Part shown: positions 19,237 to 52,492 of the stretch, one piece after another
How positions within the stretch are numbered: position 1 is the stretch's first letter
Layout: each line of letters opens with the position of its first letter
NCBI GenBank assembly: GCA_965140585.1
Contig: OZ223270.1
Coordinates: 96,001-160,000 of the forward strand
Reading direction: 5' to 3'
Source: Spirochaetia bacterium
GTDB taxonomy: Bacteria; Spirochaetota; Spirochaetia; UBA9216
DNA length: 64,000 nucleotides
Notes under the pieces: generated by a model
Database searches by the model: none
What the model was told of the DNA's origin: nothing
Seen by the model: the letters and a program-made list of their open reading frames with translations, nothing else
Program-made: the position numbers and the translations under genes

Positions 19237-20142
19237 TCATTTTACAGCCTCAACATATAATGCAACGTCATTCCATAACCTATCAAAAAAAGGATTTCTT
19301 CTAATGACAGGAGAAAGGCTTTGTCTTGGATTTACAAATAAAACTTTAGAAAATCCTACCTCAAGTAGAAATCTTCTAACTTTTTCATAGGTCCACCAAT
19401 TGATATGATTTTTTCTAAACTTACGGTGCTTTTCAATAGAACACCTTGAAGTACAAATATTCATTGCATTTTCAAACTCATTTCTTGCAAATATTTCATC
19501 AAATTCTGAATCAGATATCCTATTCTCAGATCCATCTAAATGTATTATTGAAGCATTTGCAGCAAAATGAGTAAGAAATAACTGTTGCAACGATACTTCT
19601 TTTAATGAAACTGAATATCCTAAAGTATTCCGGATCCAATCTCCTTCAAAAGCTTTTTCCCACCAAAAAAAATCTCGATCATTTCTTAAATAAGCTTCAT
19701 AATCTAATTGAGAATTAGGTGCTATAATTCGGAACAGGCCGTCCTTTTTAAGAATTCTTCTAACCTCTTTAAAAAGATTTAAAGCAGCTGGGTCAGGAAT
19801 GTGCTCTATTGCAAATCTACTATGCACAATCTCTGCAGTAGCTTTTTCCAAAGGCAACTCGTTTAAATCGAGAGGATCGTATGCAATATCCTTTGACGGA
19901 TCGAAATGTGGAAATATCTCATCTCCTAAATCGACATCTATATTAGTCCAACACGGATGGAAAAAATCACCTCCGAACCCAAAATGCCCTCCTGCCGAAA
20001 TATTATAAAAAGTTCTATTTTGAACACTTTCTTTTCCATAATGTTCAATATATTTATTAGTATCTTTAACATTTCTACCGCTTTTCACGATATCAAAACC
20101 TAATTCATTAATATATTTTTTAATAATTTTTCTCATTCTCAA
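19237..20142 (-). CDS. SAM-dependent methyltransferase-domain protein
   Basis: WTNIDV, LPL..AEIVHSRFAIEHI, EVRRILKKDG. Confidence 0.75.
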   Translation of the reverse strand: MRMRKIIKKYINELGFDIVKSGRNVKDTNKYIEHYGKESVQNRTFYNISAGGHFGFGGDFFHPCWTNIDVDLGDEIFPHFDPSKDIAYDPLDLNELPLEKATAEIVHSRFAIEHIPDPAALNLFKEVRRILKKDGLFRIIAPNSQLDYEAYLRNDRDFFWWEKAFEGDWIRNTLGYSVSLKEVSLQQLFLTHFAANASIIHLDGSENRISDSEFDEIFARNEFENAMNICTSRCSIEKHRKFRKNHINWWTYEKVRRFLLEVGFSKVLFVNPRQSLSPVIRRNPFFDRLWNDVALYVEAVK

Positions 20143-20186
20143 CCTTTTATTAAAAAGTACACATTTATTCTATACTGCTGAAAAAA

Positions 20187-23100
20187 TTAATAATATTTTC
20201 TAATTAAATCTGAAGTAAGATCAATAACATCAGATTTCAACATATCAAGATGACCCCCTGGAGAAATTTCAGTATTTAAAAATTTAGTATCTATATAATC
20301 TCCCCAGCCATAATATTTATCAAAATAATATCCTTTTGCAGAAATTGTATCATTTGCTTTAATAAGTAAACTTTTTCTATTGTAGATATCATGTCGTGTT
20401 TTAACATACATACTCACAGCTTTTGAATATACAATTAAACGTTTATCTAAAGCTAAGTTAATATTTTCTTCACTGCTTCTATCTTTGATTCTTTTAGAAA
20501 TAATTTTAGATATCGGCGAAAAGCCATTCTTCAAAATATCTATAAAATGAAACCATGTCCACTTTAATAGTTTTCTTTTCCTTGCATTTGGTAGTAATGA
20601 ATCTAACATAACCACTAAATTTATATCTACGCCATCTTTTGATAATAGTTTTGCAACCTCATAGGCTATTACCCCCCCAAAAGACACTCCTACTATTGAA
20701 ATTTTCTTTTGCTCACAATGTGACTTTATAATTTTTTTATAATTGTTTGCTAATCTTTCAACAGTCCATTTTTCATCATCAACAACACCATCTAACAAGA
20801 GCTCTTCTTCTTGAAGATATACGCCATAACATTTACCTAAATCTGTCAAGCGCTCCGCTAAATGTTTATAAATTTGAATACCAACGACAAAATAAATATA
20901 TTCATCAGAATTCGAGTTATTTAATTGGATTATTCCATTCTCATTCTTTGCTACATTTTTATTTTGATTAATTAGATTTATTTGATTGTCGAAAACTGGA
21001 GATATTAAAATATTCTTCAACTCCAAAGTAACAGCAAATTCCTTATTGATTTTTTTTAATAAACTACTAGAAGATAATGAATCTCCTCCTAATTCATAGA
21101 AATTCGAAGTATCGTTTATATCTGTGCATCCTAAGATATCAGTCCAAATTTGCTTTAACCTTGAAGTAATATCATTTGTATTATTTAACTCCGGCTCTGA
21201 ACTTGTAAGTATTTCATTAGTGCTTATTTCTGTCTGTATTTGATCTAATTTTTTATCTGAGTATATCCATAATTCCTTTTTTAGAAATGGGTATGTAGGG
21301 AGGTTAATTCGATTTGCGCATTTAATTGAATTCACAATATTTAGATCTATCGAACAACCTGATTTCCAAATATTACCAATAGATTTTATAAAAAATAATA
21401 AATCATCGTTACCCTCCATTTGTGAAGGTAGAGTTTGAATTATGTTTTTTGTTGAATCTTTCATTATAGTTCTTACAAAACGACTCAAAACCGAACCAGG
21501 ACCAACTTCAACAAAAACCAATTCCGCCAACCCGCTAAGTGAACTAATGCCTTTTTCAAATAGAATTGTACCTCGTAAGTGCTCCACCCAATACTCCGGA
21601 GTGTAAATATAGCCAGGAGTTAATTGTTCACCAGTAAGATTTGAAATAACTGTTTTCTGCAACTTATTGTAAGTTATTTTTGATGCTACAGTTTTAAATT
21701 CATCAAGTACCGTATCCATCATCACACTGTGAAAAGCTGAAGAAGTTCCCAGCAATTTCGAAGTTATTCCACTATGGTCTAGTAATTCCTGAATTTCTTC
21801 AATTGCCTGATGTGGACCAGATAAAACGACCTGCGTTGAAGAATTAATACCCGCTACATCTACTTTGCCAATCACTAAGTCTTTTATAGACTCATAATCG
21901 CTAAAAACAGCAAGCATTAGACCTTCGCCTGCACCTGCCATTATCCGTCCTCTTTCAATTACTAATTGAAGCCCTTCTTCAAGAGAAAATGCACCTGCGA
22001 TACAAGCTGCAGAGTATTCCCCCAAGCTATGCCCAATTAAATAATCAGGTATTAGACCATAGTCTATCAGAGTTTTCCCGATAGCCCATTCAACAGAAAA
22101 CAAAAGAGGCTGAGTGTATTCAGTATGATTTATTTCCAAACGATTGTTTAATATCATGTCTAAAGAGTGCCAGCCTGTAATCTTATTGATAATATTAATG
22201 CATCTTTCTAAATAATTTTTAAATATAACATTCTTTTGGTATAGGCCAGATGCCATACCAGAATACTGAGCCCCCTGTCCGGGAAACAGCATTACAATTT
22301 TTGGACTATCAAATGCCTTTATGCTTGAATAGATTTTACAAGAAGAAAAATCATCAGAAGTCATAATATTATTCTGAGGTAGTACAAAAAAACCTCTTAA
22401 AGGATATATGGGTCTATAATTAATAAGTGTATTTGCAGCTTTAACTCTATCAAAAACGTCTAAGCCCTCTATCGTGGAATACAAAACATCTAGATATTCT
22501 TTTTGTACATCACTATTTTTTGCTGAAACAGGAAAAATCAAATGTTCAGAACCATAGGATGGTGATTCAACAGTTTCAGAGTTATATGATTCCAAAATTA
22601 GATGTGCGTTTGTACCACCAATTCCAAAAGAACTTACTCCGGCTATCATTCTACCCTCAACAGGTTCCCATTCACGAAGTTCTGAATTAACTATAAAATG
22701 ACTTTCTTCAATCTTCATAGCTGGATTTGGTCTTATAAAATTAAGAGATGGAGGAATCTTTTTATTCAAAAGAGATAAAGCTGTTTTAATCACCCCGACA
22801 ACTCCGGAGGCTGCATCCAAATGCCCAATATTTGTTTTTACCGAGCCAAGATAACATTTAGACCCACTATCCTTTAGATCTCCGTATGCTTTTTTTAAAC
22901 CAGAAATTTCAATGGGATCTCCAAGAAGAGTCCCTGTGCCATGAGCTTCTACATAACTAATCTGCTCAGGTTTTACATCTGCAAGATTTAAAGCTTCCGT
23001 TATAACTTCTGATTGACCTTTAACACTTGGTGCAGTAAAACCTATTTTATCTGCTCCATCATTGTTTATAGCAACACCTCTAATAATAGCAATAACTGGG

Positions 23101-25721: not shown

Positions 25722-25745
25722 TTGATTCTATAAATATTATCCTTT

Positions 25746-27964: not shown

Positions 27965-27975
27965 AAGACTACTCC

Positions 27976-30489
27976 TTAATTTCTTCTTCGCTGACGATTT
28001 CTTTCAGCTGCACGCTTAATCAACTTTCGCTTATCATTTTCATTATTAATGGTTATAGTTTGCCCCTTAACTCCATCACCTAAAAGAAGTTCTTCTTGCA
28101 ATTGTACTGTAGGATAATTCAACAGATCAATAAGAGCAATTTCATGACTTGAGAGTTTATCAAGCTGTTTTTTCAAATCCGGAAGAAGCTGAGAATGGCC
28201 ACCTAAATCAAAAAAGCTAACATCAAATGGAATCTCATTAGTTTTTAACAACGAGGCCCAAATTAACTGAATTTCACCTATCATTCCCTCCGAAAAATTA
28301 CTATTTTTTGATTTCTTTAAGTCTATCTGTGGTTTAATTAACGATAAAGCTTTCCTGTCAATCTTACCACTAGCAAGCAGAGGAAACTCATTGATAATAA
28401 TCATGTTGCTTGGAATCATATAACCCGGCAATGTTTTTGAGAGTTCTTTCTTTATTTTTGTCACATCACTAACATTTTCAGTTTTTAGATATGCATTAAT
28501 AGTCAAATCACCCGAAGATTTGCCAGGAATCATCACTACTGCGGTTCTTACAGATTCGAGAGCTTCTAGTTGACGCTCTATTTCAGCTAATTCAATCCTA
28601 ATACCATTTATTTTCACCTGTGTATCCTTTCTACCATCATAGAAGATAACTCCCTCTGCTGAGTAAAATCCAAGATCTCCAGTTAGATAGATTCTCTCAA
28701 AACCAAATCCCCAATCTCCTTCGATGAAAACCCTTGAAGTAAGCTCAGAATCATTTAAATAACCTGAAGACACATTTATACCAGAAATAGCTATCTCGCC
28801 TTTCACATAAGGAAGACAAAGTTTTCTGTATTTATCCAGAATATATATTCTAGTGTTGGCAATCGGATAACCTATCGGAATTCTGTTTGCTTCAATATCT
28901 TTTTCATTACATGTCCAAGCAGTAACATCAATAGAAGCTTCAGTCGGTCCATATAGGTTATGGAGTTGTTTATTCCCTACTTTCTCAAAAAACTGCTTTA
29001 GAAGAGGAACTTCTAAAGCTTCTCCAGAACAAATGACAGCAGAAAGATCAGGAAATAATGTATTTGACACATTATTCAGAAACTTCTTTAGTAGCGAAGG
29101 TACAAAGTGTACATATTTTATTTTCCTGTGCCTTATTATTTCTGCCAAATATTCATCATCAAGATACTTAGCCGGTTCAGGAATAAATAAAGAAGCTCCA
29201 GTTAGAAATGGCCAGAATATTTCCCACATTGAAACATCAAATGTAAATGGAACTTTATGTAAAATAGTATCACCAGGTATAAGAGGATAAACTTCTTGCA
29301 TCCAGAAAATTCTATTTACAAGACCATTTCCGTTTATCTCAACCCCTTTTGGATTACCGGTTGATCCACTAGTATATAAAACCGCAAAGGGATCATGTGG
29401 TTGTTTTATTATGTCTACAAGATTTTCATTATCTTCGGTATTAAAGTAATCGATGAAAACTGTATCAAAAGCTTCAAACTCCACACCGCTATTGCGTTTC
29501 TCTATTACAGCCAGACTTGCTCCAGCATTTTTCAGGATAAAACATACCCTAGCAACCGGCCAGTTCGGATCAATAGGAATATAAATATTTCCAGTATTTA
29601 CTATAGAATGGATAAGGATAATACGCTCTATCGAATTATCAATACTTACTGCAATAAATTTACTTGTACCAACTCTGGATATTATAGCGGTAGAATATTT
29701 TTTAACAAGGTGATCAAACTGTTTATAAGAATAACTTCTAGTATTATCACTAATTGCAATGAGATCTGCATAATCAATTCTGGATTGCTCAAGAAGTCTC
29801 CGTAAAGCTATTTTTACAGGATAGTCTCTGATTTTATCGGAATAAAATCGCTTTATGTATTCATCAGACAGTAAGGTAATATTAGAAATATTCTCATCTG
29901 GGTTTTCAAGAATTTTTCCAAGAATTAATTCATAAGAGTCTTTCCATTGCGTTACCTGACTTTGACTGAAAGCATTACTATTAAATTCCCATCGATACCG
30001 ATACTTTCCCTTTTCTATCCAATATGTAAAAAAAAGGTCCATTTGTGCACCGTCTGGCCTGATATCTACCGATATACATTCCACATCTTTAAGATTAAGA
30101 TTGAAAGGATCTTCTTTAGTAAAACCTACCTGAATAAAAAACGGGATTCGAATATCTCTTTGCCCCTTATAGAGCTTTAAAATCTCTAGAAAGGGAGCAT
30201 CTTGATTACGATTAAGAAGAAGCATTTGTTTCCGAATTTTTATATAAAGAGATGCAAAAGTATCTGCATTTTCTATTTGAACTCGAAGAGGCAGAATATT
30301 AACAAAAGGACCATACATATATTCCCGTTCCGGGTCTTTACGGTTGGGAAACGGTATACCGATAAAAAAATCCTCTTGACCACATAACTTGGAAAGTAAT
30401 ACAGCATAACTCGTTAATAGAACAATAAATTCTTGAAACTGGAATTCATCCTCAACCAGCTTTAACTTAGATGCCACCCAATCAGGCAT
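27976..30489 (-). CDS. NRPS, C-terminal part: half C domain-A(Ser)-T
   Basis: GPFVNILPLR; YTSGSTGNPKG; by-eye code DVWHISLIDK; GGHS. Confidence 0.9.
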   Translation of the reverse strand: MPDWVASKLKLVEDEFQFQEFIVLLTSYAVLLSKLCGQEDFFIGIPFPNRKDPEREYMYGPFVNILPLRVQIENADTFASLYIKIRKQMLLLNRNQDAPFLEILKLYKGQRDIRIPFFIQVGFTKEDPFNLNLKDVECISVDIRPDGAQMDLFFTYWIEKGKYRYRWEFNSNAFSQSQVTQWKDSYELILGKILENPDENISNITLLSDEYIKRFYSDKIRDYPVKIALRRLLEQSRIDYADLIAISDNTRSYSYKQFDHLVKKYSTAIISRVGTSKFIAVSIDNSIERIILIHSIVNTGNIYIPIDPNWPVARVCFILKNAGASLAVIEKRNSGVEFEAFDTVFIDYFNTEDNENLVDIIKQPHDPFAVLYTSGSTGNPKGVEINGNGLVNRIFWMQEVYPLIPGDTILHKVPFTFDVSMWEIFWPFLTGASLFIPEPAKYLDDEYLAEIIRHRKIKYVHFVPSLLKKFLNNVSNTLFPDLSAVICSGEALEVPLLKQFFEKVGNKQLHNLYGPTEASIDVTAWTCNEKDIEANRIPIGYPIANTRIYILDKYRKLCLPYVKGEIAISGINVSSGYLNDSELTSRVFIEGDWGFGFERIYLTGDLGFYSAEGVIFYDGRKDTQVKINGIRIELAEIERQLEALESVRTAVVMIPGKSSGDLTINAYLKTENVSDVTKIKKELSKTLPGYMIPSNMIIINEFPLLASGKIDRKALSLIKPQIDLKKSKNSNFSEGMIGEIQLIWASLLKTNEIPFDVSFFDLGGHSQLLPDLKKQLDKLSSHEIALIDLLNYPTVQLQEELLLGDGVKGQTITINNENDKRKLIKRAAERNRQRRRN

Positions 30490-31118
30490 ATCTGCAAATA
30501 GAGTTTCTCCATCACCAGTAAATACACCTCTTTCAGATTTTCAGAAGGCAGAAGCAGAGGGGAGGGTTCATTTTTTATTTGGTTTTTCCAAAAATCAATA
30601 TTAAAAATACATAAGGAATTCGCTTTATAATCTGTTAATTCAAATGAAAGTTTGTTAGTATTATACAACTCAGAAATGGCTCTGGATAATAAATGTTTAG
30701 AGTGAAGATCTATTAAAATATGATGTTGAATAATGCAAAAATAGTTTAAATTATCATCAAGATTAATTAATCTTGCTTCCAAAGGGAGTTCAGTATTTTC
30801 TAAAAAAAATTTCTGGTTAGATAATTTCTGAATATATTCTTTAGCCTCTGAATCTGAGCTCATTGAAACTACTTTAAGTTCATTATCTGGTAAGGCTCCA
30901 AAAACAGCTTGGAATACAGTATTCCAAGACTTAAATAGCCTATCCTGATCCAATTTATTAGATATTCTACAACATAGCACAATATTATACGCAATATCTG
31001 TTTTATACAGCGCGTTGATAGTTTTAAAATGCATTTGATTAATGGTAATATTATTATTCATTTTACTTTTAACCCTTATTATAAATTGTGAAATAACATA
31101 ACTCGGGGAACATATCAA
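30462..31118 (-). pseudogene. N-terminal half of the same NRPS condensation domain, split by a 1-nt frameshift (real or sequencing error)
   Basis: QHHILID (HHxxxD), FWKNQI, LLLPS; the other frame continues RGVFTGDGETLFADMPDW from about 30530. Confidence 0.75.
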
Positions 31119-31188
31119 AATTCTTAACCTTATATACTGAGAAAACTCCAGAAAACTTAATTTTCAAGGTTAATTAGATATATAACCT

Positions 31189-32676: not shown

Positions 32677-32767
32677 AAATAAAACAGAAAAAATATAAGA
32701 ATAAAAAGAGTTAAATCATTCTTACTCTTTATATATCCATGAATTAAACTTTAAAACCCTCTCACTT

Positions 32768-36154: not shown

Positions 36155-36171
36155 ATTACAATTTTAATTGA

Positions 36172-37312: not shown

Positions 37313-39088
37313 TTAGTATATTACCTTTATCCCACTAGGCTTTACACTCTGTCGACCACTCCAAAAATTATATTCTATAGCCCCAATATCCGGTAGACTA
37401 TCTCGTAATTTTCCTAAAGCGTCTACAGGAAAATAATTAAGAGGCAAACGATCTACTAAAGGAGAAGTATCACTTTTAGGCATTCCAATATATTTTATAT
37501 CATCAGTAGAAGTGATAATTTCAGGATCCCCTATAGATTGAGAAACATCAGGATCAGAGTCTGGCGATTTAGCTCTATAGTGAGGGCGTTTATCACTACC
37601 AATCCCCTCTCCAGTAACTGCGGAATACTGAAAATGATTATTAAGAAATACATTCCCTTCACTATTTCCAGGCAGAGTCCAATCAGGATCTACATAATCA
37701 GATTCACTAAAATCAAGCCACTCATCAAACAAACAACCAATCATAGAGGAATTAGTCCATCCGCTACCCATATAATAAAACCAACCACCAAGGAAAGTAC
37801 AGTTCCACAAAAGAACATGATCCCAGTTCCCTACCATCCCTCCAGCATCAAGAATTATCTTTTGAGTCGAATTGTCAAAGTCATAACGTCCAGGACCGCG
37901 CATCTCAATCAGAACATTTACAAATGCAATATTAGTATTACTAGTATGGTCAATATTATTATCTATATAAAAGCCTTGATAATGGCAATTTGTCGCATGA
38001 AGTCCATAGATGATAAAGTTATCTTTATCATATCTCCACATTTGGTATACATCAGCATGGTTGTATGTGTCTTCTGGATCAATGTCATCAACTGTGCAGT
38101 TGATAACACACTCAACATTCTGAAAAGCATCATTTGCTATGTGCTCAATATCACATCCACGGCAAAAATATGCTTCACGAAAAGCCATATCGACATTATA
38201 GACATAGCAGTCTGTGAACCAGCAAGGGTAATCACTTCTAGAAACACCGTCACGTCTTATTGGGCTACTATCTGTAACTGTCCGATTAAAACCGATTATA
38301 TCTACATTATCACACCATAGGTTTGAAGGACTATGCCATGTAATTCTATTTTTTGTTACTTTGTTTGAAATAGTCAAATCCTTAAAACACCCCCAAGTGG
38401 TACCATGGGCAGTACCACCAGTATCAATTATAACATTCTCTTTAGACGCTCCAGGTGCTTTTGTAAAATAAATCCACTCATCAACAGTTAATGTCGAATA
38501 AGTATAGGAAGTACCTAAAGTCCACGCCCCCTCTTCAAGATATATTTTAGCTCCATCACATTTTGATTCATTTGACAATGCCTGAACAGCATTTATTGCT
38601 GCTAAAATTGTTTCAAACGGACGCTCGGGGTTCCCAACTAACCCGGTAGAATCATTACCATTATGATTATCACACCAGACTTCATATGCCTCTAATGTCC
38701 CAGCACCATCTACTATCAATATTAAGGGGTCTAATTCTTTTACACCACCATCCTTTCCTGTAACAGTAGCGACAATCGAAATTTTCCCACTACCAGTAAA
38801 ATCTGACGGATCTAAAGTAATAAAATATTCCCAAACATCTGTTCTTGTATTCAATTCCATTGAAAATACTTTTTGTGTTGATGGACCCGCATATCCTTGC
38901 CCACTCACATCGAAGGAAACATCTAAAACTCCAGCTTTGGAAAAGGCAACAACTCCAGCGTCAAAGTTTTTTTCGATACGTTGATGCGGAACAACATCCC
39001 ATCGCGCTATTGGAATTACTGCAAAAATAAACATCGGTAAGATGAATAGATTCAAAAATATAAAAATTGATTTCCTTGATATAGCCAT
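37313..39088 (-). CDS. Secreted parallel beta-helix (pectin lyase-like) protein
   Basis: Signal peptide; GND..G...PFETI; NDAF, HADVYQ; C-terminal D..G..R...PDIGAIEY. Confidence 0.65.
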   Translation of the reverse strand: MAISRKSIFIFLNLFILPMFIFAVIPIARWDVVPHQRIEKNFDAGVVAFSKAGVLDVSFDVSGQGYAGPSTQKVFSMELNTRTDVWEYFITLDPSDFTGSGKISIVATVTGKDGGVKELDPLILIVDGAGTLEAYEVWCDNHNGNDSTGLVGNPERPFETILAAINAVQALSNESKCDGAKIYLEEGAWTLGTSYTYSTLTVDEWIYFTKAPGASKENVIIDTGGTAHGTTWGCFKDLTISNKVTKNRITWHSPSNLWCDNVDIIGFNRTVTDSSPIRRDGVSRSDYPCWFTDCYVYNVDMAFREAYFCRGCDIEHIANDAFQNVECVINCTVDDIDPEDTYNHADVYQMWRYDKDNFIIYGLHATNCHYQGFYIDNNIDHTSNTNIAFVNVLIEMRGPGRYDFDNSTQKIILDAGGMVGNWDHVLLWNCTFLGGWFYYMGSGWTNSSMIGCLFDEWLDFSESDYVDPDWTLPGNSEGNVFLNNHFQYSAVTGEGIGSDKRPHYRAKSPDSDPDVSQSIGDPEIITSTDDIKYIGMPKSDTSPLVDRLPLNYFPVDALGKLRDSLPDIGAIEYNFWSGRQSVKPSGIKVIY

Positions 39089-39339: not shown

Positions 39340-39948
39340 CTATTTATCTTTAAAAAAGTAACGAACTCGCTGCTTTACCAACTCATCTTCTAAGGAGTAG
39401 TAATCTTCCTCATCATTCCGTTTAGAAATAAGATCGTACCAAGGATATTGAAGAGTTTGATTTTCTATTTTTGAAATATAATCATTAGTTTTACCAATGA
39501 ATTTCGCAGGTACTCCGCCAACGATAGTACCACTTTCTACATTTTCATTTACGACGGCCCCTGCGGCAACAATACAGTTGTCCCCAATTGTTACATCCGG
39601 TAGAATAATCGCTCCTTGTCCAATAAAACAATTATTACCGATAATTATCGGACCAACCTTATCAAGAATCTTTCCTGTCGACACTGCAAAAACAGCAACA
39701 GAAGCATCATGTCCTATCAGACTGCAATTGGATAAACAGCAATTATTCCCAATTGAAAAATATTTTGGATCTGTAAAGATCGCACCTCTATTAATTACAG
39801 TTCCCTCACCTAAATGATACAAAAATCCTCTAGCCCTGATGTAATCTGCATATTCAGCATTGCCCGGATTATTAATCTTTAGATATAACCTAGTTAATTT
39901 GCCCTTTTTAAAAGCAAAATATTTTAATAAACTCTTAATCAAACCCAT
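39340..39948 (-). CDS. LbH (hexapeptide) acyltransferase
   Basis: IGHD, IIIGNNCFIG, VTIGDNCIVAAGAVV, GGVPAK. Confidence 0.9.
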   Translation of the reverse strand: MGLIKSLLKYFAFKKGKLTRLYLKINNPGNAEYADYIRARGFLYHLGEGTVINRGAIFTDPKYFSIGNNCCLSNCSLIGHDASVAVFAVSTGKILDKVGPIIIGNNCFIGQGAIILPDVTIGDNCIVAAGAVVNENVESGTIVGGVPAKFIGKTNDYISKIENQTLQYPWYDLISKRNDEEDYYSLEDELVKQRVRYFFKDK

Positions 39949-41151: not shown

Positions 41152-43956
41152 CTATTTAACTAATACTTTCTTTTTTCGGTTTTTATATTTATAAACAAAA
41201 CGTCCAGAAACTTCCATAAAAACGGTCCATAATCGATAAGAAACCACCCCACTAATCAACCCAATCAATACCTGAACGGGCCAAATTGACGGCATTCCTA
41301 AATTTGATAATTCTGAGAGTACAAAAGAATGAACGATGTAAATAAACAATGAAGCAGAAGCTATCTCGAGGATGATTGTTTTTAGATTCTTAGGAAACCG
41401 GATTCTGTCTATCCATATAATCAATAACATGACAAGATAAAACGATATAGGCAAGTAACGATATGTCACCAATCCGGGAATATCCAATCTTGTTAATACA
41501 AACGGAATAAATAGACTAACTGTTAGAAAAATCCGCTCCTTCGTACATGTGGTGCTAGAGATCGCTACACCAAATGCAATTGGCCAAAGCCAGGGAAATG
41601 GTCCGATACTTTCACTTCCAAGACTGCCATTCCAAAATCCAGTTAAGCTCTGTAATACTCCAAGGACAATAGCCCCTAGAGATACTGTCATATCTAGCTT
41701 GAATTGACTATCTTGGTTAGGAACTCTCTGTGTTTTACCTTTTTTCCAGGAATATAGTACAATCAAAGTAACGACGGAAAGGATTAATATATTCGCTGTC
41801 AAAATATCAAGAAACCAATACCCCCAACGGCCATTTCCTGGTTTTTGAAACATTGTGTTAAGAAGAAAAAAGTCAGGTAGCCAAAAACGATGATTTTGAA
41901 TAGAGCATAATGCATTCCATAAAAATACAGGAAATCCATAGCTAAAAATAAATCTAAAAATTCCGTTAAGATTTCCTTTCTGGTAAATTGTAGGACGTAA
42001 AAACTTCCCAAAACTGAGCCCTGATAATACAAATAGAACCGAGGCATCTGGCAGATGATTAAAACCTAAATGACCCATTATAACAAATGTGATAGCAATA
42101 GCACGAAACAAGCTTGTCATATCAATATAAGTCCAGACTTTTGATTTTTGTTTAGTCTTTTTTTTACCGAGCAACACATTAAGGGGCATTATTTCCCACC
42201 TATCCGGCAAATAGCCTATATGTTTTTCAATGAATAATGAAACCCTAATGTACGATAATGAATCACCTCCTAAAGCAACAAACGATGACTCTATAGTATC
42301 TATATGCCTGCCTAATACTGATTCTATCTTTTTTATAATGACTATATCTGATGGATCAATATCCTCAAGGCGATATAAATCTTCAGAAGGCTTACTACAA
42401 CTTGAATCAATATCCATTAAGGCTAGAGCCTTACGATCCGTTTTGCCATTTAATGTAAGAGGATATTCATCCACCTGCATAAAGAGATTTGGAATCATAT
42501 AAGTAGGCAAGATATTAGATAAGTCTTTCTTTATCGCTTCAACATTTATATCTCTACCATCTTTAGCAATAATATATGCAGCAAGCTGCTTGTTACATTT
42601 GGAGAGCTCCTTAGCCACAACCACAGCGTTATGAATTGAAGGATTATTCATTAATGCATATTCAATATCTCCTAGCTCAATCCTATAGCCCCTTATCTTG
42701 ACTTGAAAATCAGATCTTCCAATATACTCAATATTTCCATCTTCATGATAACGGCAAACATCTCCGGTTTTATACAACCGGTCGGTATCAAGCCCCCATT
42801 CAGAAGGACATGTTAGAAACCTTTCAGAGGTTAACTCATCCCTGTTTAAGTATCCTAAAGACAGCCCGATACCGCCGATATATAATTCACCTGTCTCGCC
42901 AATAGTTACCGGATTAAGCTGATCATCAAGTATTATCATTACTGTATTATCTATTGGCTTCCCAATAAGAGGTTGCTGGTTACACCCTCTCAACCTGAAA
43001 GCTGAAGACCATACTGTTGTTTCTGTAGGACCATAAAAGTTCCAGACTTCATCACAATTTTCAGTAAGTTTATTAGCAATATCAGCTGACACGGCTTCTC
43101 CACCGCATACAATTTTTTTCAAAGAAGAATTTTTCCAACCATAGTCAAAAAACATTTGGAAAGATGTAGAGGTAGCCTGCATCATAGTAACCGAATTCTT
43201 ATCAATATATTCGATAAGCCGCCCGATATCTCTGGCCATTTTGGTAGTCGCCAATACTATTGTGGCTCCAACGATAAAAGATAGATAAAGTTCAGGAACA
43301 GACATATCAAATGAGATAGTTGCAAGAGCAAGGAATTTATCGTCTTCAGTAATTCCAGGCTTCTTCTTCATTGATAATAAAAGGTTTAGAAGAGCTCTGT
43401 GTTGAATCTGAACGCCTTTTGGGGTCCCGGTTGATCCTGAAGTGTATATTATATAAGCTAAAAAATCACCCTCGATCTTTATTGCAGGCGGTAAAGCCTC
43501 TTCTTTATCTATTTGCGCCTTCTCATCTTCGATAACCATAACATCTACATCAGCATTATCGAAAAGTTTTTCAACTAATGCTTTTTGAGATATTATAGAA
43601 GCAAGTCCAGAGTCATCAACCATATAAGAAAGTCTGGATTTTGGAAAATGAGGATCCATAGGAATATAACACGCACCTGTTTTTAAAATACCTAGCAGAA
43701 CAGGTAACAGATCAATATTTCTTTCCAAGCATACACCAACAATAGTTCCATTTTTAATATCTTTTTTAATAAAGTAGTTTGCATATTTGTTGGAAAGAAT
43801 ATCAAGTTCTCTATATGAAATTTTATGGTCTTCAAAGATTACTGCAGTATTATTATTTTCTTTACTTACATCTTTAAAAATTTCAAGGAAATTTGAGTGC
43901 TTCCCTAAATCCACAGTAGTATTATTTATTTCTTTTATTATGCTCTCCAGCATCAC
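41152..43956 (-). CDS. Adenylation domain + carrier domain + acyltransferase-3-like membrane domain fusion
   Basis: YTSGSTGTPKG, YGPTE, NGKTDR; LGGDSLSY; FRAIAI.FVIMGH, LFVLSG, YWFL, SLFIYIVH with many TM segments. Confidence 0.85.
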   Translation of the reverse strand: MMLESIIKEINNTTVDLGKHSNFLEIFKDVSKENNNTAVIFEDHKISYRELDILSNKYANYFIKKDIKNGTIVGVCLERNIDLLPVLLGILKTGACYIPMDPHFPKSRLSYMVDDSGLASIISQKALVEKLFDNADVDVMVIEDEKAQIDKEEALPPAIKIEGDFLAYIIYTSGSTGTPKGVQIQHRALLNLLLSMKKKPGITEDDKFLALATISFDMSVPELYLSFIVGATIVLATTKMARDIGRLIEYIDKNSVTMMQATSTSFQMFFDYGWKNSSLKKIVCGGEAVSADIANKLTENCDEVWNFYGPTETTVWSSAFRLRGCNQQPLIGKPIDNTVMIILDDQLNPVTIGETGELYIGGIGLSLGYLNRDELTSERFLTCPSEWGLDTDRLYKTGDVCRYHEDGNIEYIGRSDFQVKIRGYRIELGDIEYALMNNPSIHNAVVVAKELSKCNKQLAAYIIAKDGRDINVEAIKKDLSNILPTYMIPNLFMQVDEYPLTLNGKTDRKALALMDIDSSCSKPSEDLYRLEDIDPSDIVIIKKIESVLGRHIDTIESSFVALGGDSLSYIRVSLFIEKHIGYLPDRWEIMPLNVLLGKKKTKQKSKVWTYIDMTSLFRAIAITFVIMGHLGFNHLPDASVLFVLSGLSFGKFLRPTIYQKGNLNGIFRFIFSYGFPVFLWNALCSIQNHRFWLPDFFLLNTMFQKPGNGRWGYWFLDILTANILILSVVTLIVLYSWKKGKTQRVPNQDSQFKLDMTVSLGAIVLGVLQSLTGFWNGSLGSESIGPFPWLWPIAFGVAISSTTCTKERIFLTVSLFIPFVLTRLDIPGLVTYRYLPISFYLVMLLIIWIDRIRFPKNLKTIILEIASASLFIYIVHSFVLSELSNLGMPSIWPVQVLIGLISGVVSYRLWTVFMEVSGRFVYKYKNRKKKVLVK

Positions 43957-46269: not shown

Positions 46270-46294
46270 GCTTGTTCTTCGTCAGCTCCTTTTT

Positions 46295-47641
46295 TCAGGG
46301 ATTCCGGGATACGTTGACATAATATTGCGAGACTAAAGCCCCAGCACAAAAAACATAGACTGGATTAAACATTGAATTCATTAGTGAATCTATCATAAAA
46401 AAAGTAACTAATATGCATAGTAAAAAAAGATAAAGTCTTCGTTTTTCGGAATTAATATCTAAAGGGACTTCTTTATTTTTATAGTACTTCAGAATAAAAT
46501 ATGCACCGCTCCCGAGAGTAAAAAAAACGCTAAACAACCCCGCAATGCCATAGGTGCTGAATATTCCAAGCCAAAGGGAGTCTAAAATAGAGAAAAGCTC
46601 TTTACCAGTAACCGGATCAACAGGATATGCCCGCCGATAGCCAGCCCATCCGAACCAAAATCGTTGAAGAGTTTTTTCAGCAAATAAATCCTCCTGCCAC
46701 ATCCTAAAGAGTAATGAGGCAACTCTATTAGAGTCAAATATAATGCTAAAAAGCTGTCCAAACCTTCTGACAGGTATAATATTAAATATTCTAGTAATAA
46801 AATAAATAGGGATACCGCTCATTATTACACGAAGCCATTTAATAGCATTGTGACTATTTCGTTTGTATATATAAATTAAGAATAAACCTAAAGTCAAGAA
46901 AATCCAACCATTGGCTGATTTACATAAAATTGTTAGTACAATAAAGAGTACAGATAGAAATGACAACTTTAGCTTACCTAACTTTTGAATATACCCCATT
47001 TTCCAGTTACTGTATGAAAAGATAGTTACCATAGTCATCCAAAATGAAACCATTAACCCATGCTGCATAAAAACTATAGGTCTCCATCCTCCATAGCGCA
47101 TATGCTGAATCAATTTATGCTGAAGCCAGCCATATAATAACTCATGAAAAAAAGGCCCCTTTGATAATTCAACAATAATAAAAGGAATATATATCACTCC
47201 TCCTATAATAACACCTCGTACAAGTCTGAACAGGGATTCATCATCATTAATAAACTTACGGCCTGCCCAATATAGAGCTCCCCATGTAAGCAGATTACTC
47301 AAACTTTCTGAGACACCGCCATATAAACTCAAGCCATTTGAAAGTGCGGTTATAACAGGAAGGAGTGAGCACCATAGCAACATCGGGATGTCTACCGGTC
47401 TAAACTTATCAATAATTTTGGTATTTGGACTAATCTTTACACTTCCAATAAATAAAGAAACGCCGATTGCAATATTTTTGTTATACTGAGGAAATCCAGG
47501 CAGATCCAAATAAGCCATTGGTAAAAATAAAACACCGCCGATCAGTACAATCAATACAGCCTTTGTAGCATCAACGACTCTAAAAAGAATTACAGAGAAT
47601 AGTATCCACCCATATATCATTACAGTTGCCAAGACTGTCAT
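46295..47641 (-). CDS. wzy: Wzy polymerase / O-antigen ligase-family membrane protein
   Basis: Multi-TM; RYGGWRPIVFMQH, CKS.NG, FGW.G..R, DSLW; adjacent to the flippase. Confidence 0.75.
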   Translation of the reverse strand: MTVLATVMIYGWILFSVILFRVVDATKAVLIVLIGGVLFLPMAYLDLPGFPQYNKNIAIGVSLFIGSVKISPNTKIIDKFRPVDIPMLLWCSLLPVITALSNGLSLYGGVSESLSNLLTWGALYWAGRKFINDDESLFRLVRGVIIGGVIYIPFIIVELSKGPFFHELLYGWLQHKLIQHMRYGGWRPIVFMQHGLMVSFWMTMVTIFSYSNWKMGYIQKLGKLKLSFLSVLFIVLTILCKSANGWIFLTLGLFLIYIYKRNSHNAIKWLRVIMSGIPIYFITRIFNIIPVRRFGQLFSIIFDSNRVASLLFRMWQEDLFAEKTLQRFWFGWAGYRRAYPVDPVTGKELFSILDSLWLGIFSTYGIAGLFSVFFTLGSGAYFILKYYKNKEVPLDINSEKRRLYLFLLCILVTFFMIDSLMNSMFNPVYVFCAGALVSQYYVNVSRNP

Positions 47642-47675
47642 ATATTTTAATTTCCCCGCCTTAAGATTGCTAAGT

Positions 47676-49031
47676 TCAGATCAACCCTCCTGGGAAACCT
47701 AAATTAAAAACCATTCTTAGAGACAAAAATATCGCAATCAAAAGAAATAGAAAAAGTGTCGCGACCAAGTCCTGTTTAATTAAAGAAAATTTCTCCCGAA
47801 CTAAAGCAATGTTAATAACTATATAAACAGCAATATCATTAAAAACTATACCCAGTATAGTTCCAATATCGCCAAATAAATGAAACAATAATGGTACAAT
47901 TGAAATCATATATAAAAATTTTAGCAAATTTCCCAATGTCAAATATTGTGGTTTTCCAATCGACATTAGAACACGGTCTATAGTAACAATCAAAATTAAT
48001 GGCCACATTCCTACAGCAAGAAGTGGCAAAATCCATGCCGCTGCTGCATACCTGTCGTCATAAAGAAATAAAATTATGAAATCACCAAAACAGCTGAAGA
48101 TTGATACAAAAACAGCCATAGCAAGTAAAATTAGTCTTCTTGGTTTTGCAATTTTTGCTCTTAAATCATCTGCAGGCAGATGATTAAACTTGGAAATAAG
48201 TGGGTAGATGACCGTATTGCTCAATTTTTCCAATACCTTTTTTGGCAATTCGGAAAAGTTTAATGCAATATTATAGACCCCAAACATGGTAATAGAGAAA
48301 AGTTTACCTAGTAATAATCTGTCAGACTGTGCTGCTAAAAACATAACAGCTGTAGACATCCAAATCCACATCCCAAAATGAAGCAGTTCGGAAAGGGAGG
48401 TTTTTTCCAGCCTGAATCTATTCTTTATTCCCTCGTTTATCTTATGACTCCATAAAGTTTTTACTATTTCAGAAACCAATCCACGAATTATCAGAGACCA
48501 AACACTCCCGGTAAGATACGCAACTATTACCATTATTATCAAACTAACTAATTGAACACCTAATTCCAGTATTACGAGTTTTTTTTGATTTAACTCTTTA
48601 TTCAATAAAAACAATGATGTGGAAGAAAACCCACTAACCAAAGAGTTAATTGCAATAACGGGTAACAATTGCAGTAAAATGGGCTGTTCATAAACTCTGG
48701 AAACAGGATATGCACAAATCACCAATGCAATAGCAAGGATAACACCTCTCAAAACTTGCAAAGTCCAGGCAGTATTTATAAAATCTTCTTCATGTACTCT
48801 ATCACTTCGAATAACACAAGGGCCAAGCCCTATATCTGAAAACAAGGCGAGTCCAAGCTGAAAAACTGTACCAATGGCTACAATACCGAATAATTCCGGT
48901 GCCAGCAACCTTGTTAATACGACATTTCCAAGAAGACGTAGAAATTGAGAAGACCCGAACCCAAAAACTATAAAAAGTGAAGATTCTATCGCTTTTTTCT
49001 TTAATATTTTATCAGATTCATCATTAACCAA
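47676..49031 (-). CDS. wzx: Oligosaccharide flippase
   Basis: LTRLLAPELFG, SDIGL, NTAWT, DRLLLGK, GVYNIA. Confidence 0.9.
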   Translation of the reverse strand: MVNDESDKILKKKAIESSLFIVFGFGSSQFLRLLGNVVLTRLLAPELFGIVAIGTVFQLGLALFSDIGLGPCVIRSDRVHEEDFINTAWTLQVLRGVILAIALVICAYPVSRVYEQPILLQLLPVIAINSLVSGFSSTSLFLLNKELNQKKLVILELGVQLVSLIIMVIVAYLTGSVWSLIIRGLVSEIVKTLWSHKINEGIKNRFRLEKTSLSELLHFGMWIWMSTAVMFLAAQSDRLLLGKLFSITMFGVYNIALNFSELPKKVLEKLSNTVIYPLISKFNHLPADDLRAKIAKPRRLILLAMAVFVSIFSCFGDFIILFLYDDRYAAAAWILPLLAVGMWPLILIVTIDRVLMSIGKPQYLTLGNLLKFLYMISIVPLLFHLFGDIGTILGIVFNDIAVYIVINIALVREKFSLIKQDLVATLFLFLLIAIFLSLRMVFNLGFPGGLI

Positions 49032-49857: not shown

Positions 49858-50300
49858 ATGACAGCCCCATAATATAATACCTTTTCACCATCTGATAGAA
49901 TTTCCCATTGAGTTAGAACCTTATCAGCTAAATGTACCGCTATTTTACCAGAGATCGATAAGGTTTCTGCATTTGCGATACTGTCAACCCACAACGTCTT
50001 TGCTCCAAAAATCTTTCCCCATAAGATACAAATAATACCTGGTGCAGCACCTGTTGAAACAACTATATCCGGCCTAACTTTTTTTACAATCTTAAAAGCA
50101 TCTATAAATGTTTTTACTAACTTTAGTTTAGTATTAAAATTCGAATCCGTTATCAAGAAAAATGGCCCACTAATTTCATCAGCCATTTTTAAACTTGTTG
50201 AGCACCAACTAACCTTTGTGTCCTCAAAAGACGGGAGAAGGCGCAATAACTGAATCCAGTGCCCACCACCAGAACTAATTGCTAAAAGTTTCTTTTTCAA
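49854..50300 (-). CDS. PssD/Cps14F-like (Alg14-like) GT subunit
   Basis: SSGGGHW, STGAAPG, WVDSIAN, TQW. Confidence 0.9.
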   Translation of the reverse strand: MKKKLLAISSGGGHWIQLLRLLPSFEDTKVSWCSTSLKMADEISGPFFLITDSNFNTKLKLVKTFIDAFKIVKKVRPDIVVSTGAAPGIICILWGKIFGAKTLWVDSIANAETLSISGKIAVHLADKVLTQWEILSDGEKVLYYGAVI

Positions 50301-51151: not shown

Positions 51152-51310
51152 AGGTTGATTACACCCTAAACCTTTAACTTTTTCTGTATTATACGAAGAG
51201 TCGCTTAAACATACAATAGCGAGTATATAATTAAGATTTAACTACCGCTGCCGAAACAAGCTGGTTGACCTTTGTTCTAATATTTTATTTTAACATTAAT
51301 TTCAATTAAA

Positions 51311-52492
51311 TTATTGAACTTTCCTGTGTTGCAAACTGTAGTTAATACCTTCGGGAATTTTATTTGAACCAAACTTAGATGCGACGGACTCAAACATCAT
51401 ACCTAAAATGACAACAGGCGTTCTAATAATAATCCTAAGGTCGTTTAACAGACTCATATTTTTGGCATAACTTATATCAAGCCTAATCATCTCTTTAAAT
51501 GTAAGCTTATTCTTTCCACTAACCTGCCAAAGGCCCGTCATACCAGGAACTGTATCAAACCTATGCGTATGCCACCGCAGGTACTCATCAGCTTCATAGG
51601 GGATACATGGTCTGGGCCCAACAAGACTCATATCACCAAAAAGCACATTTAATAGCTGAGGAAGTTCATCGATACATGATTTTCTAAAAAACTGACCACC
51701 CGGAATAATTCGAGGGTCTTTATCATCAAGCTTCTCCATAGGAACATCACCATTCTTAATAAAGGTCTGGGCATGTTTCCCATGGAAACTCTGGTTATTA
51801 TCATGTTTCATTGAGCGAAATTTATAGAATTTAAAAGGTCTACCTTTATAACCAATCCTTGTCTGTGTAAAAAAAACAGGTCCTGGAGAAACAATCTTAA
51901 TATACAGACTGACAGCTGCAAATAGTGGTGATAAAACAAGAAGCATTATGAATGTTACAGAAACATCCATGGCTTTTTTCCACACAGGGATCTTCATAGT
52001 GAACATATCTTCAGTACAAGCACTTACATCAATTTTTTTATCAGAACAGCCTTCATTTTTATATCCAGATGAAGCATCCTTATTTTTTAACCACTTATCA
52101 GGATAGGTATATATGTCAAAACTGTTATGGTCTTGTTTAATAATAGGAATCTGCTCTAAAATTTTTTTACCAAGAATCAACGCGCCTTTTTCTGCTGTAT
52201 CGGGAAGAAGAATTGCTACATGCTTTTTATCATACCAGCCGATATGATCAATTACCCGAACTAACGTTTTAACTTCTTCAACAAAGATGTTAACCTTCTT
52301 TTTGCTTGAATAAAGAAGGTCCGAAGTAAATAAAATAATAGAAAAAACGGAACCATTACGATCCGCTCTGACTCTTTCATAATTTATTAACTCTTTGAAT
52401 TCTTTTGAAGAATAAATATCATTACTCTTCCATGTCTCTTCAGAAAAAGACTGAAGCTTATTCCATTTTTGTCTTTTTTTTAAAGACTGCAT
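51311..52492 (-). CDS. Priming phosphoglycosyl (sugar) transferase with an N-terminal degenerate GGDEF-like domain
   Basis: C-term SPGPVFF, KFRSM, DELPQL, MSLVGPRP, PGMTGLWQV; N-term ERVRADR..FSII, RVIDHIGWYDKKHVAILLPDT. Confidence 0.88.
   Translation of the reverse strand: MQSLKKRQKWNKLQSFSEETWKSNDIYSSKEFKELINYERVRADRNGSVFSIILFTSDLLYSSKKKVNIFVEEVKTLVRVIDHIGWYDKKHVAILLPDTAEKGALILGKKILEQIPIIKQDHNSFDIYTYPDKWLKNKDASSGYKNEGCSDKKIDVSACTEDMFTMKIPVWKKAMDVSVTFIMLLVLSPLFAAVSLYIKIVSPGPVFFTQTRIGYKGRPFKFYKFRSMKHDNNQSFHGKHAQTFIKNGDVPMEKLDDKDPRIIPGGQFFRKSCIDELPQLLNVLFGDMSLVGPRPCIPYEADEYLRWHTHRFDTVPGMTGLWQVSGKNKLTFKEMIRLDISYAKNMSLLNDLRIIIRTPVVILGMMFESVASKFGSNKIPEGINYSLQHRKVQ

Follow-up and report, generated by a model that had tools for sequence, protein, structure and literature searches.

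The DNA analysed here is a stretch of 64,000 nucleotides (referred to as the window) from a Spirochaetia bacterium (GTDB lineage Bacteria; Spirochaetota; Spirochaetia; UBA9216), and it corresponds to positions 96,001 to 160,000 of the forward strand of contig OZ223270.1 in the NCBI GenBank assembly GCA_965140585.1. It carries a long minus-strand gene run in which genes of a Wzx/Wzy exopolysaccharide (EPS) locus stand together with genes of nonribosomal peptide synthetase (NRPS) and polyketide synthase (PKS) type, among them a gene for an adenylation (A) domain and a carrier (T) domain fused to a membrane acyltransferase domain of the AT3 superfamily (A-T-AT3). In order to identify the genes, the open reading frames (ORFs) of the window were scanned with Pfam and NCBIfam profiles, and the NCBIfam matches were judged against the curated cut-offs. 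The run at 19237-52492 comprises 22 co-directional genes (23 ORFs), or 24 genes when the PilZ and LuxR-type regulator genes upstream are counted; according to the ORF listing and the profile scans it is unbroken on the minus strand from 53663 to 19237, and its widest intergenic gap is 355 nt. Such a run had been described in an initial annotation of this DNA, and every gene named there was recovered on the minus strand by the profile scans. The genes are given below from the head of the run to its end, followed by two divergent export genes. Further domains are condensation (C), ketosynthase (KS), acyltransferase (AT), acyl carrier protein (ACP) and thioesterase (TE); GT2 and GT4 are glycosyltransferase families, and cassette members belong to a six-gene set shared with the genome loci L019, L026 and L028.

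52992..53663, minus strand: LuxR-family regulator with a VpsT-like receiver (CsgD-like); GerE 9.2e-22, VpsT-like_REC 1.6e-6, NCBIfam CsgD 122 bits, below the cut-off.
52508..52882, minus strand: PilZ-domain protein (c-di-GMP receptor); Pfam PilZ 2.8e-8.
51311..52492, minus strand: priming polyprenyl-phosphate glycosyl-phosphotransferase (PGT); Bac_transf 1e-58, TIGR03025 243.6 bits, below the cut-off.
50297-51151, minus strand: GT2 (Pfam/NCBIfam).
49854-50300, minus strand: PssD/Alg14-like protein (Pfam/NCBIfam).
49387-49857, minus strand: PssE/GT28C-like protein (Pfam/NCBIfam).
47676..49031, minus strand: Wzx flippase (MOP family); Polysacc_synt_3 4.9e-51.
46295..47641, minus strand: candidate Wzy polymerase of 448 aa, polytopic, with 8 hydrophobic segments by hydropathy; no Pfam match.
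45283-46269, minus strand: GT2, cassette member; 42% identical, full length, to the L019/L026/L028 homologues.
44013-45221, minus strand: GT4, cassette member; 39-44% identical, full length, to the L019/L026/L028 homologues.
41152..43956, minus strand: A-T-AT3 fusion of 934 aa; A at about aa 1-510, carrier site GGDSL with Ser565, AT3 at about aa 600-934.
39990-41129, minus strand: stand-alone AT3, 22 nt downstream of A-T-AT3; Acyl_transf_3 4.8e-20, R/K-X10-H near the N-terminus.
39340..39948, minus strand: hexapeptide-repeat acyltransferase (NeuD/PglB/VioB-like; Pfam/NCBIfam).
37313..39088, minus strand: 591-aa secreted protein with one N-terminal hydrophobic segment (hydropathy); no Pfam match.
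36172-37092, minus strand: GT2 (Pfam/NCBIfam).
35027-36154, minus strand: GT4, cassette member; 34-40% identical to the L019/L026/L028 homologues.
32768-34858, minus strand: FkbH-like protein of 696 aa; TIGR01686 187 bits, above the cut-off of 146.65.
31693-32676, minus strand: GT2, cassette member; 36-37% identical to the L019/L026/L028 homologues.
31189-31692, minus strand: hexapeptide acetyltransferase (EpsC/WcaB-like), cassette member; 59-61% identical to the L019/L026/L028 homologues.
27976..31118, minus strand: C-A-T NRPS module in two frames, with the N-terminal half of C (HHILID) at 30462-31118 and the rest of C, A and T at 27976-30489.
25985-27964, minus strand: AsnB, a glutamine-dependent amidotransferase of the asparagine-synthase family with its N-terminal Cys present; TIGR01536 434 bits, above the cut-off.
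25746-25988, minus strand: free carrier protein (ACP) of 80 aa; PP-binding 1.4e-6, best family match DltC NF003464 at 3.2e-10 (39.9 bits, cut-off 68).
20187-25721, minus strand: hybrid A(Gly-like)-T-KS-AT-ACP-TE protein of 1844 aa, with its domains above the Pfam cut-offs.
19237-20142, minus strand: S-adenosylmethionine (SAM)-dependent methyltransferase; Methyltransf_11/25/23, weak.
53715-54929, plus strand (divergent): PCP/Wzz-like protein, weak; GNVR 0.0018, TIGR03007 9e-15, below the cut-off.
54929-56476, plus strand (divergent): Wza/OPX-like exporter; Poly_export and SLBB, TIGR03027 5.2e-19, below the cut-off.

Judged by these annotations, the glycan set is complete, with the PGT, eight further glycosyltransferase genes, Wzx, a Wzy candidate, and PCP- and Wza-like genes. 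The Wzx/Wzy operon proposed in the initial annotation is borne out to the extent that the priming transferase, PssD/E and Wzx were found and Wzy is a candidate. The latter is 25% identical over its full length to an ORF (17202-18632) of another genome locus, L014, which carries Wzy_C. The reading frames of the GT2 at 50297, PssD-like and PssE-like genes overlap by 4 nt, and the best NCBIfam matches of the PCP and Wza proteins are models of the XrtA/PEP-CTERM system. At the head of the run, the PilZ protein contains RENRR (RxxxR) and DVSSGG (DxSxxG), in line with the PilZ motifs RxxxR and D/NxSxxG. The VpsT-like regulator bears WISR, with Ile at the second position, which is only near the c-di-GMP-binding motif of VpsT, W[F/L/M][T/S]R. 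The 591-aa protein, absent from the initial annotation, has Beta_helix/Pel9A-like Atlas look-alikes (0.90-0.92, a lead only), and is probably a right-handed beta-helix of glycanase or lyase type.

The run lies in a segment of low GC content (0.26-0.40 across about 18-62 kb, compared to 0.42-0.45 in the outermost flanks at 1-6, 16-18 and 62-64 kb), and no tRNA genes were seen at the edges of this segment. Comparison with a contig of a sister genome revealed highly similar flanking genes and regulator, as the identities were 99.5% for FolE, 99.8% for CNNM, 96.4% for a sigma-54 regulator, 93.7% for a 331-aa protein at 16967, 98.2% for the VpsT-like regulator and 87.3% for a phosphopantetheinyl transferase (PPTase). 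No relative at 90% identity or more was found for PGT, Wzx, PCP, Wza, MBOAT (described below), AsnB, the 591-aa protein or the hybrid. The best relative of the hybrid, P0408, is located on the sister contig and shows 57.5% identity over its full length with the same domain order. Among the 120 best matches of the FkbH-like and A-T-AT3 searches there was no protein from that contig. Conserved flanks and regulator around diverged or replaced biosynthetic genes are, on this comparison, the pattern of serotype-type surface-polysaccharide loci, and by its gene content the run makes up a Wzx/Wzy exopolysaccharide locus, situated in a segment that is polymorphic and low in GC. The presence of a hybrid of the same build on both contigs argues that the hybrid belongs to the locus, P0408 being placed to the contig only.

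The NRPS-PKS machinery had been described as interleaved with the polysaccharide genes. This is true of A-T-AT3 and the FkbH-like gene, which are the only two thiotemplate genes among the glycosyltransferase genes; the other five (C-A-T, AsnB, ACP, A-T-KS-AT-ACP-TE and methyltransferase) constitute a single contiguous 3' block at 19237-31118. The gap between the acetyltransferase gene at 31189 and C-A-T is 70 nt long and has no terminator-like site. This empty gap is the sole operon evidence from the promoter and terminator scan of 18800-38700, which as a whole was no better than chance (86 promoter-like sites where 92.3 were expected, 10 terminator-like ones where 8.6 were expected); a terminator-like hairpin at 19106-19092, past the methyltransferase as the last gene of the run, has to be read against that chance level. 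An Rfam scan of the whole window gave no family at gathering score, and so no c-di-GMP riboswitch. In agreement with the initial annotation, which had noted the lack of a drug exporter and resistance gene, no ABC, MFS, MATE or RND transporter was detected by Pfam/NCBIfam in 19237-53663, and no resistance gene was present in the NRPS-PKS block.

The A-T-AT3 gene encodes a true single-protein fusion and is followed by a separate AT3 gene. In its translation, intact adenylation core motifs precede the GGDSL carrier site and a polytopic C-terminal domain, which matches Acyl_transf_3 (PF01757) weakly, with an E value of 0.0085 (15.6 bits, gathering 31) over positions 6-319 of the 326 profile positions. 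When the 335-aa membrane domain alone was searched against 1.84 billion representatives, 294 proteins were found at E<=1e-3, 78 at 1e-10 and 28 at 1e-30, the 294 members being representative clusters at 50% identity. The architectures of the 150 matches listed, counted with home-made profiles, were A-T-X (92), C-A-T-X (12), A-A-T-X (4) and T-X (17); the rest comprised 23 proteins without these domains, mostly short pieces, one with KS and one with A only. Across the family, the membrane domain almost always follows a carrier domain in one protein. Pfam annotation of the 49 longest family members detected AMP-binding in 48, PP-binding in 38 and Acyl_transf_3 in 34 (best E value 2.7e-13). A search of plasmids with the AT3 domain by tblastn gave no match.

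A 49-sequence alignment showed that D564, S565 and L566 of the phosphopantetheine site and R617 are invariant, and that H628 is conserved in at least 90% of the sequences. The spacing R617-X10-H628 corresponds to R/K-X10-H, a motif of transmembrane helix 1 that was located at position 20 of the domain. Pearson et al. (PMC7448272) reported this motif to be essential in OafA and proposed it as the acyl-donor site with Arg toward the cytoplasm, and they name two architectures only for bacterial carbohydrate AT3 proteins, AT3-only and AT3-SGNH. The motif and the family-level Pfam evidence would place A-T-AT3 in the AT3 superfamily, with an architecture outside the two described in that paper (PMC7448272). 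We infer that a carrier fused before helix 1 would swap acyl-CoA for acyl-S-phosphopantetheine on the same protein, which is mechanically coherent.

The putative substrate codes were read by hand in the A domains. Among the 49 family members, 29 have DPRHxxFQAK, eight have D[VP]RHxFLLAK, seven have no Asp235 and two have DLTKLFHVGK, and the single members are DILQLCMIWK, GIRTVS-QAA (one gapped position) and DMPQICFVWK, the last being the window protein. The majority code DPRHxxFQAK (29/49) was matched to no substrate. The spread of codes suggests a chemically diverse family whose members would load different acids, and the seven members without Asp235 probably load non-amino acids. Over 521 aa, the A domain of A-T-AT3 shares 42% identity with that of the hybrid, which is as close as its best database matches (40-44%). 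With low confidence, the substrate of A-T-AT3 may be a small, glycine-like amino acid.

In the hybrid, the motifs read in translation all look intact: the KS Cys/His/His, AT GHSLG and SAFH, both carriers, and TE GVSFG (GxSxG). The SAFH motif is presumably of malonyl type. Pfam detected no KR, DH or ER domain in the hybrid. The hybrid code DILQICMIWK is identical at 8 of 10 positions to the glycine signature DILQLGMIWK, and the C-A-T code DVWHVCLIDK is identical at 7 of 10 to the serine signature DVWHLSLVDK. According to PMC12283262, these signatures are glycine-activating and serine-activating, respectively, and positions 299 and 330 vary. Single-domain scores were used for PDB comparisons of the A domains, since the whole-chain ranking is misleading (LgrA chains sum two A domains); the best single-domain matches of the hybrid A domain were 5u89 and 4zxh, both of which we take to be glycine-activating. 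The TE domain had no PDB relative by sequence at E<=1e-3. The predicted chemistry of the hybrid is the joining of glycine and one malonate to a 4-amino-3-oxobutanoyl thioester. In P0409, a fused homologue with 50% identity, the domains are ordered A-T-KS-AT-ACP-C-A-T-TE, which suggests that C-A(Ser)-T acts after the hybrid. AsnB, whose gene overlaps the ACP gene by 4 nt, might act on a carrier-bound acid, which is a guess. The block product is predicted to be small, polar and amine-bearing.

Two other product types were considered and rejected, namely a siderophore, because receptor and transport genes are not present, and a lipid anchor, because of the single malonate extension and the lack of reductive domains. 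The role as an anchor allowed for in the initial annotation is not borne out for the same reason.

The hybrid belongs to a recurrent type of protein. Ten proteins of 1823-1882 aa share its domain set by precomputed Pfam (43-57% identity), one of them from a Spirochaetales metagenome-assembled genome, and each of the glycine-type code motifs was found again in either 10 or all of the 11 homologues examined. Among the matches listed, inspected by eye, no hybrid homologue shares a contig with an FkbH-like or A-T-AT3 match. A tblastn search of plasmids with the hybrid gave relatives at 40% identity or less only; the one whose surroundings were inspected (L081, 34% identical) is located among transposases, an SDR gene and an MFS transporter gene, not sugar genes, but it is too remote to decide the matter. 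Three hybrid homologues (P0422, P0451 and P0465) carry a fused PilZ domain (PF07238) by precomputed Pfam, which suggests direct c-di-GMP control of such assembly lines and echoes the PilZ and VpsT-like genes heading this operon.

Further genes with a possible part in acylation or carrier activation are located outside the run:

58364..60733 (within), plus strand: MBOAT protein (DltB/AlgI-like); MBOAT 1.2e-27, TIGR04091 DltB 3.2e-43 (148 bits, cut-off 375) as its sole NCBIfam match.
58364..60733 (within), plus strand: weak DltD-like protein after MBOAT; TIGR04092 DltD 5.6e-5 (22.6 bits, cut-off 150).
60843..61892, minus strand: third AT3, at the far edge of the low-GC segment; Acyl_transf_3 5.1e-26.
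6620..7261, plus strand: Sfp-type PPTase (ACPS, AASDHPPT_N; AusB/HetI-like), 12 kb from the locus.

Each of the three AT3 domains in the window contains R/K-X10-H, and none is a close paralogue of another. Directly upstream of the MBOAT and DltD-like genes, 57905-58216 encodes a DUF6951 protein (4.4e-31) that may be a small partner of this pair. An asparagine-synthase-like protein of 436 aa without a glutaminase domain is encoded at 7258-8568, tail to tail with the PPTase gene.

The FkbH-like protein begins with a conserved part of about 365 aa; a HAD-IIIC phosphatase domain bearing DxDxT follows, and an invariant Cys (SCRVFG) lies in the C-terminal region. Its family comprises proteins of about 700 aa that are 33-41% identical over the full length, and D372, D374, T376 and C625 are invariant across 32 sequences. 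The N-terminal 365 residues resemble FkbH_N/BF1531 by Atlas look-alike only (the query being the homologue P0019), and the family profile matches PDB 3slr ('uncharacterized protein BF1531') at 1.3e-21. A genome scan with the FkbH-like gene gave 80 loci, none of them from a spirochaete and none above 41% identity. Home-made iterated profiles were insensitive, as they missed AT3 where Pfam finds AT3, and their counts for the 80 loci were not used. For 18 of the loci the Pfam annotation was inspected; the choice was non-random, since six were taken for matches to the window sugar genes, three for A-domain matches and the rest for taxonomic spread. Within this set, polysaccharide genes were nearby in 11 loci (L001, L007, L009, L014, L019, L026, L027, L028, L030, L043 and L052) and were lacking in the remaining seven (L002, L003, L008, L017, L021, L022 and L054), and an AMP-ligase, PPTase or PKS was present in three (L002, L007 and L030). 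In Hyphococcus luteus (L003:10001-12058), the long FkbH-like gene is located in the middle of a nuo (NADH dehydrogenase) operon with no sugar or carrier genes nearby, so that the family is not confined to polysaccharide loci.

In L019 (Methylotenera), L026 and L028 (Methylophilaceae), the FkbH-like gene, 36-38% identical to that of the window, is co-located with two GT2, two GT4 and the acetyltransferase genes in a six-gene cassette of full-length homologues. Genes for Wzz-like, tyrosine-kinase-like ATPase, WecG-type and TPR proteins are also present there, but neither the larger ORFs of these loci nor 14 small ORFs scanned at E<=0.01 gave an A, C, KS or PP-binding domain. Compared to this cassette, the window has five inserted genes, coding for A-T-AT3, AT3, the acyltransferase, the 591-aa protein and a GT2, and the NRPS-PKS block is appended after it. 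Because it travels with five sugar genes in carrier-free loci, the FkbH-like gene is assigned to the sugar part of the run. A dedicated carrier partner was not found for it, the sole free ACP of the window being 7 kb away and coupled to AsnB. Since the closest syntenic loci are without a carrier protein, its acceptor may be the sugar itself.

Some other features of the window should be mentioned. Two proteins are encoded just outside the locus at 14270-16841, in the vicinity of the PilZ and VpsT-like effectors: one is of HD-GYP type (HD_5) and contains a cyclic-nucleotide-binding domain, the other is a sigma-54 response regulator. A degraded insertion sequence (IS)-type transposase, consisting of a 204-aa DUF772 ORF and then short out-of-frame ORFs, is located at 56566-57671, between the Wza-like gene and the DUF6951/MBOAT genes. 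Two low-GC ORFs of 139 and 216 aa without family match (18160-19211, plus strand) converge on the operon end within the variable segment, and a 213-aa protein at 5973-6614 matches NCBIfam Lsa23 surface adhesin below the cut-off (159.9 bits, cut-off 270). Lsa23 is a Leptospira protein, which makes this match the clearest hint in the window at a leptospire-like origin; together with the Spirochaetales homologue of the hybrid, it supports a spirochaetal source.

Taken together, these data lead us to propose, tentatively and with slightly less than even confidence, a c-di-GMP-controlled Wzx/Wzy exopolysaccharide locus in which carrier-dependent acylation modules have been added to a sugar core. 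The c-di-GMP control is suggested by the PilZ protein and the VpsT-like regulator at the head of the operon. In the proposed mechanism, A-T-AT3 would adenylate a small alpha-amino acid (glycine-like code) and load it in the cytoplasm onto its own phosphopantetheine arm. The thioester would then be offered to the Arg/His site in transmembrane helix 1 of the fused AT3 domain, which would transfer the aminoacyl group either to the repeat unit while this is still lipid-linked or to the nascent polymer, making A-T-AT3 a one-polypeptide functional analogue of DltA-DltC-DltB. In the 3' block, the hybrid would load glycine and extend it once with malonate, and the resulting unit would be joined to serine by C-A-T and possibly amidated (AsnB/ACP) and methylated. 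This small polar unit would not be exported; it would be handed to the polysaccharide by the TE, the neighbouring AT3 or the MBOAT/DltD-like acyltransferases.

The two parts of this proposal differ in strength, and the A-T-AT3 fusion is the firmest element of the whole. Carrier-dependent decoration of the polymer, as claimed in the initial annotation, is the natural reading for the A-T-AT3 fusion among the glycosyltransferases, and A-T-AT3 probably decorates the polysaccharide, owing to its position, the family-wide fusion logic and the conserved residues. The claim is not established for the NRPS-PKS block, and attachment of its product to the polysaccharide is a nearly balanced call that we favour because of the co-directional linkage, the lack of an exporter or regulator, the Dlt-like genes and surplus membrane acyltransferases nearby, and the behaviour of the locus as a polymorphic one. 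In its fullest form the proposal is more doubtful but possible: the AT3 (perhaps MBOAT) acyltransferases would take aminoacyl- or peptidyl-ketide thioesters from carriers, not acetyl-CoA; the polymer would bear glycyl esters and a Gly-malonate-Ser amino-keto-acyl unit and be charge-modified, possibly zwitterionic, under c-di-GMP control; and the A-T-AT3 family would represent a widespread, unrecognised counterpart of Dlt.

A number of points weigh against this proposal. The window A-T-AT3 has weak Pfam matches of its own (AT3 0.0085, PP-binding 0.0098), and its code has no good match among the known codes and differs from that of the family majority; furthermore, the code positions of all A domains were hand-placed from anchor motifs. 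All Dlt-family matches are below the NCBIfam cut-offs, and MBOAT/DltD-like pairs can equally be O-acetylases of the AlgI/AlgJ type. The sugar cassette is not normally linked to thiotemplate genes, and an A-domain or PKS match within 10 kb was found by single-sequence phmmer in only 4 of the 80 FkbH-like loci. The NRPS-PKS block is contiguous and appended after a cassette that works without it elsewhere, as simple adjacency would look, and free products are usually released by a TE domain. Finally, C-A-T is interrupted by a frame shift at about 30531-30534, beside a short A run, with the N-terminal half stopping at 30462 and the second frame open from about 30540.

The strongest alternative, which we consider substantial but rather doubtful, is that an EPS locus with acyl-decoration genes of its own, including A-T-AT3, lies beside an unrelated five-gene NRPS-PKS cluster (19237-31118). 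This cluster, co-transcribed or merely adjacent, would make a free Gly-malonate(-Ser) metabolite, e.g. an amino-keto acid or a methoxypyrrolinone/tetramate-type compound, leaving via a transporter encoded elsewhere. In favour of this, the block is contiguous and closes the run, following a cassette that in L019, L026 and L028 is complete with no such block, and the hybrid has a standard TE; P0409 is an ordinary self-contained assembly line, A-T-KS-AT-ACP-TE with a methyltransferase is a set that we associate with amino-acid-derived pyrrolinone ends, and the 34%-identical plasmid homologue is near MFS transporter, SDR and transposase genes instead of sugar genes. However, there is no exporter, resistance gene or regulator inside the block, and the EPS genes are only 70 nt away with no terminator-like site between. 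The identity of 57.5% for the hybrid against 94-99.8% for the flanks fits a swapped surface-antigen locus and not a conserved metabolite cluster, and the Gly-type A domain of the hybrid is common to the embedded A-T-AT3.

It is unlikely, in our view, that the NRPS-PKS part is a decaying remnant in which the frame shift in the C domain inactivates the module, so that the block contributes nothing in this strain. The halves of the C domain are in different frames, and both C-A-T pieces align to the homologue P0421, abutting at its residue 212. However, this is the sole break seen: the core motifs of A, T, C, KS, AT and TE are otherwise present, and no other catalytic motif of the five genes is damaged. 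The break, located beside a short A run, reflects either a true lesion or an error in the assembly, and the hybrid alone is an autonomous unit family-wide, as the ten proteins with the same domain set indicate. On the preferred reading, attachment of the block product to the polymer, the block may still be impaired in this strain by the frame shift.

The least probable explanation, and a poor one in our estimate, is that of the initial annotation, in which a single assembly line including FkbH and the free ACP makes one amino acid/glycerate/ketide substituent or anchor: although the FkbH domain scores above its family cut-off, the operon has a free ACP, the C domain could join serine to an acyl group carried by an ACP, and a PPTase, AMP-ligase or PKS is near the FkbH-like gene in L007, L002 and L030 (3 of 18), the FkbH-like gene moves with the carbohydrate cassette of Methylophilaceae-type EPS loci where PP-binding was not found, the ACP is translationally coupled to AsnB rather than to the distant FkbH, the 120 best matches include no FkbH-like relative from the sister contig in spite of the best relative of the hybrid being there, and one malonate extension without KR, DH or ER cannot give a lipid anchor.

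The charge and physical properties of surface polysaccharides, as well as their recognition by phages and the immune system, are set by non-sugar substituents, and to our knowledge Dlt is the only well-understood carrier-protein route for such substituents, acting on teichoic acids. If AT3 domains accept donors from fused carriers, a third AT3 architecture would stand beside the two described, the ligand of the AT3 donor site would be directly testable with donor and transferase in one protein, and a few hundred uncharacterised A-T-AT3 proteins would gain a predicted role. If the NRPS-PKS block also feeds the polymer, genome-mining tools that list such clusters as 'orphan metabolites' would put one kind of cell-surface chemistry in the wrong category. 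What makes the system interesting is chiefly the A-T-AT3 family, together with the retained position of the hybrid within a polymorphic EPS locus, P0408 being placed to its contig only. A literature search, with most subscription journals outside it, found no description of an A-T-AT3 fusion, of NRPS-PKS genes inside a wzx/wzy operon, of FkbH-like genes in polysaccharide loci, or of NRPS/PKS genes in Leptospira or spirochaete EPS loci.

With regard to known systems, the AT3 O-acetyltransferases (OafA, OafB, Oac and OatA) resemble A-T-AT3 in the PF01757 domain, which the window protein matches below the gathering score, in R/K-X10-H and in a place in a surface-polysaccharide gene cluster; their presumed donor is acetyl-CoA (PMC7448272), whereas the window AT3 is preceded by A and a carrier and has no fused SGNH domain. 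The Methylophilaceae-type EPS loci resemble the locus in their six co-located, full-length cassette homologues, but lack A, T, C, KS and ACP as well as the five inserted genes and the appended block. FkbH/OzmB-type enzymes of polyketide pathways form glyceryl-ACP; the window protein resembles them in its TIGR01686 score, the HAD DxDxT and the invariant C-terminal Cys, and differs in its length of about 700 aa, its N-terminal domain of about 365 aa and the lack of a carrier in the closest syntenic loci. In synthases of the Pks13 type (ACP-KS-AT-ACP-TE), the TE passes the product to a sugar, which is a precedent for a TE acylating a carbohydrate. The hybrid has a similar carrier-KS-AT-ACP-TE order and matches NCBIfam Pks13 with 581 bits, far below the cut-off of 2100; its starter, moreover, is an amino acid that a fused A domain supplies, and long acyl chains are absent. 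Terminal NRPS-PKS modules together with O-methylation form the pyrrolinone or tetramate ends of free natural products, and the order A(Gly)-T-KS-AT(SAFH)-ACP-TE followed by a methyltransferase is similar, but the window hybrid has no C domain before A and is part of an exporter-free polysaccharide operon.

The closest functional parallel is the Dlt pathway (DltA, DltC, DltB and DltD), which is responsible for the D-alanylation of teichoic acids. In both, a small amino acid would be loaded by an adenylation enzyme onto a phosphopantetheinyl carrier, and a polytopic acyltransferase in the membrane would deliver it to a polymer outside the cytoplasm. Each of the three A domains in the window matches DltA models (258-273 bits, cut-off 560), the best match of the ACP is DltC, the only match of the MBOAT protein is DltB, and a weak DltD-like gene follows MBOAT. 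In contrast to Dlt, the partner of A-T is AT3 and not MBOAT, and A, T and the transferase are in one polypeptide; the hand-read codes are Gly-like and Ser-like, while Dlt uses D-Ala; and the likely acceptor is a Wzx/Wzy polysaccharide exported via a Wza-type outer-membrane channel rather than teichoic acid, for which no genes were seen in the window. As every Dlt model is below its cut-off and the transferase is of another superfamily, the system, which would work like Dlt, is not a member of the Dlt family.

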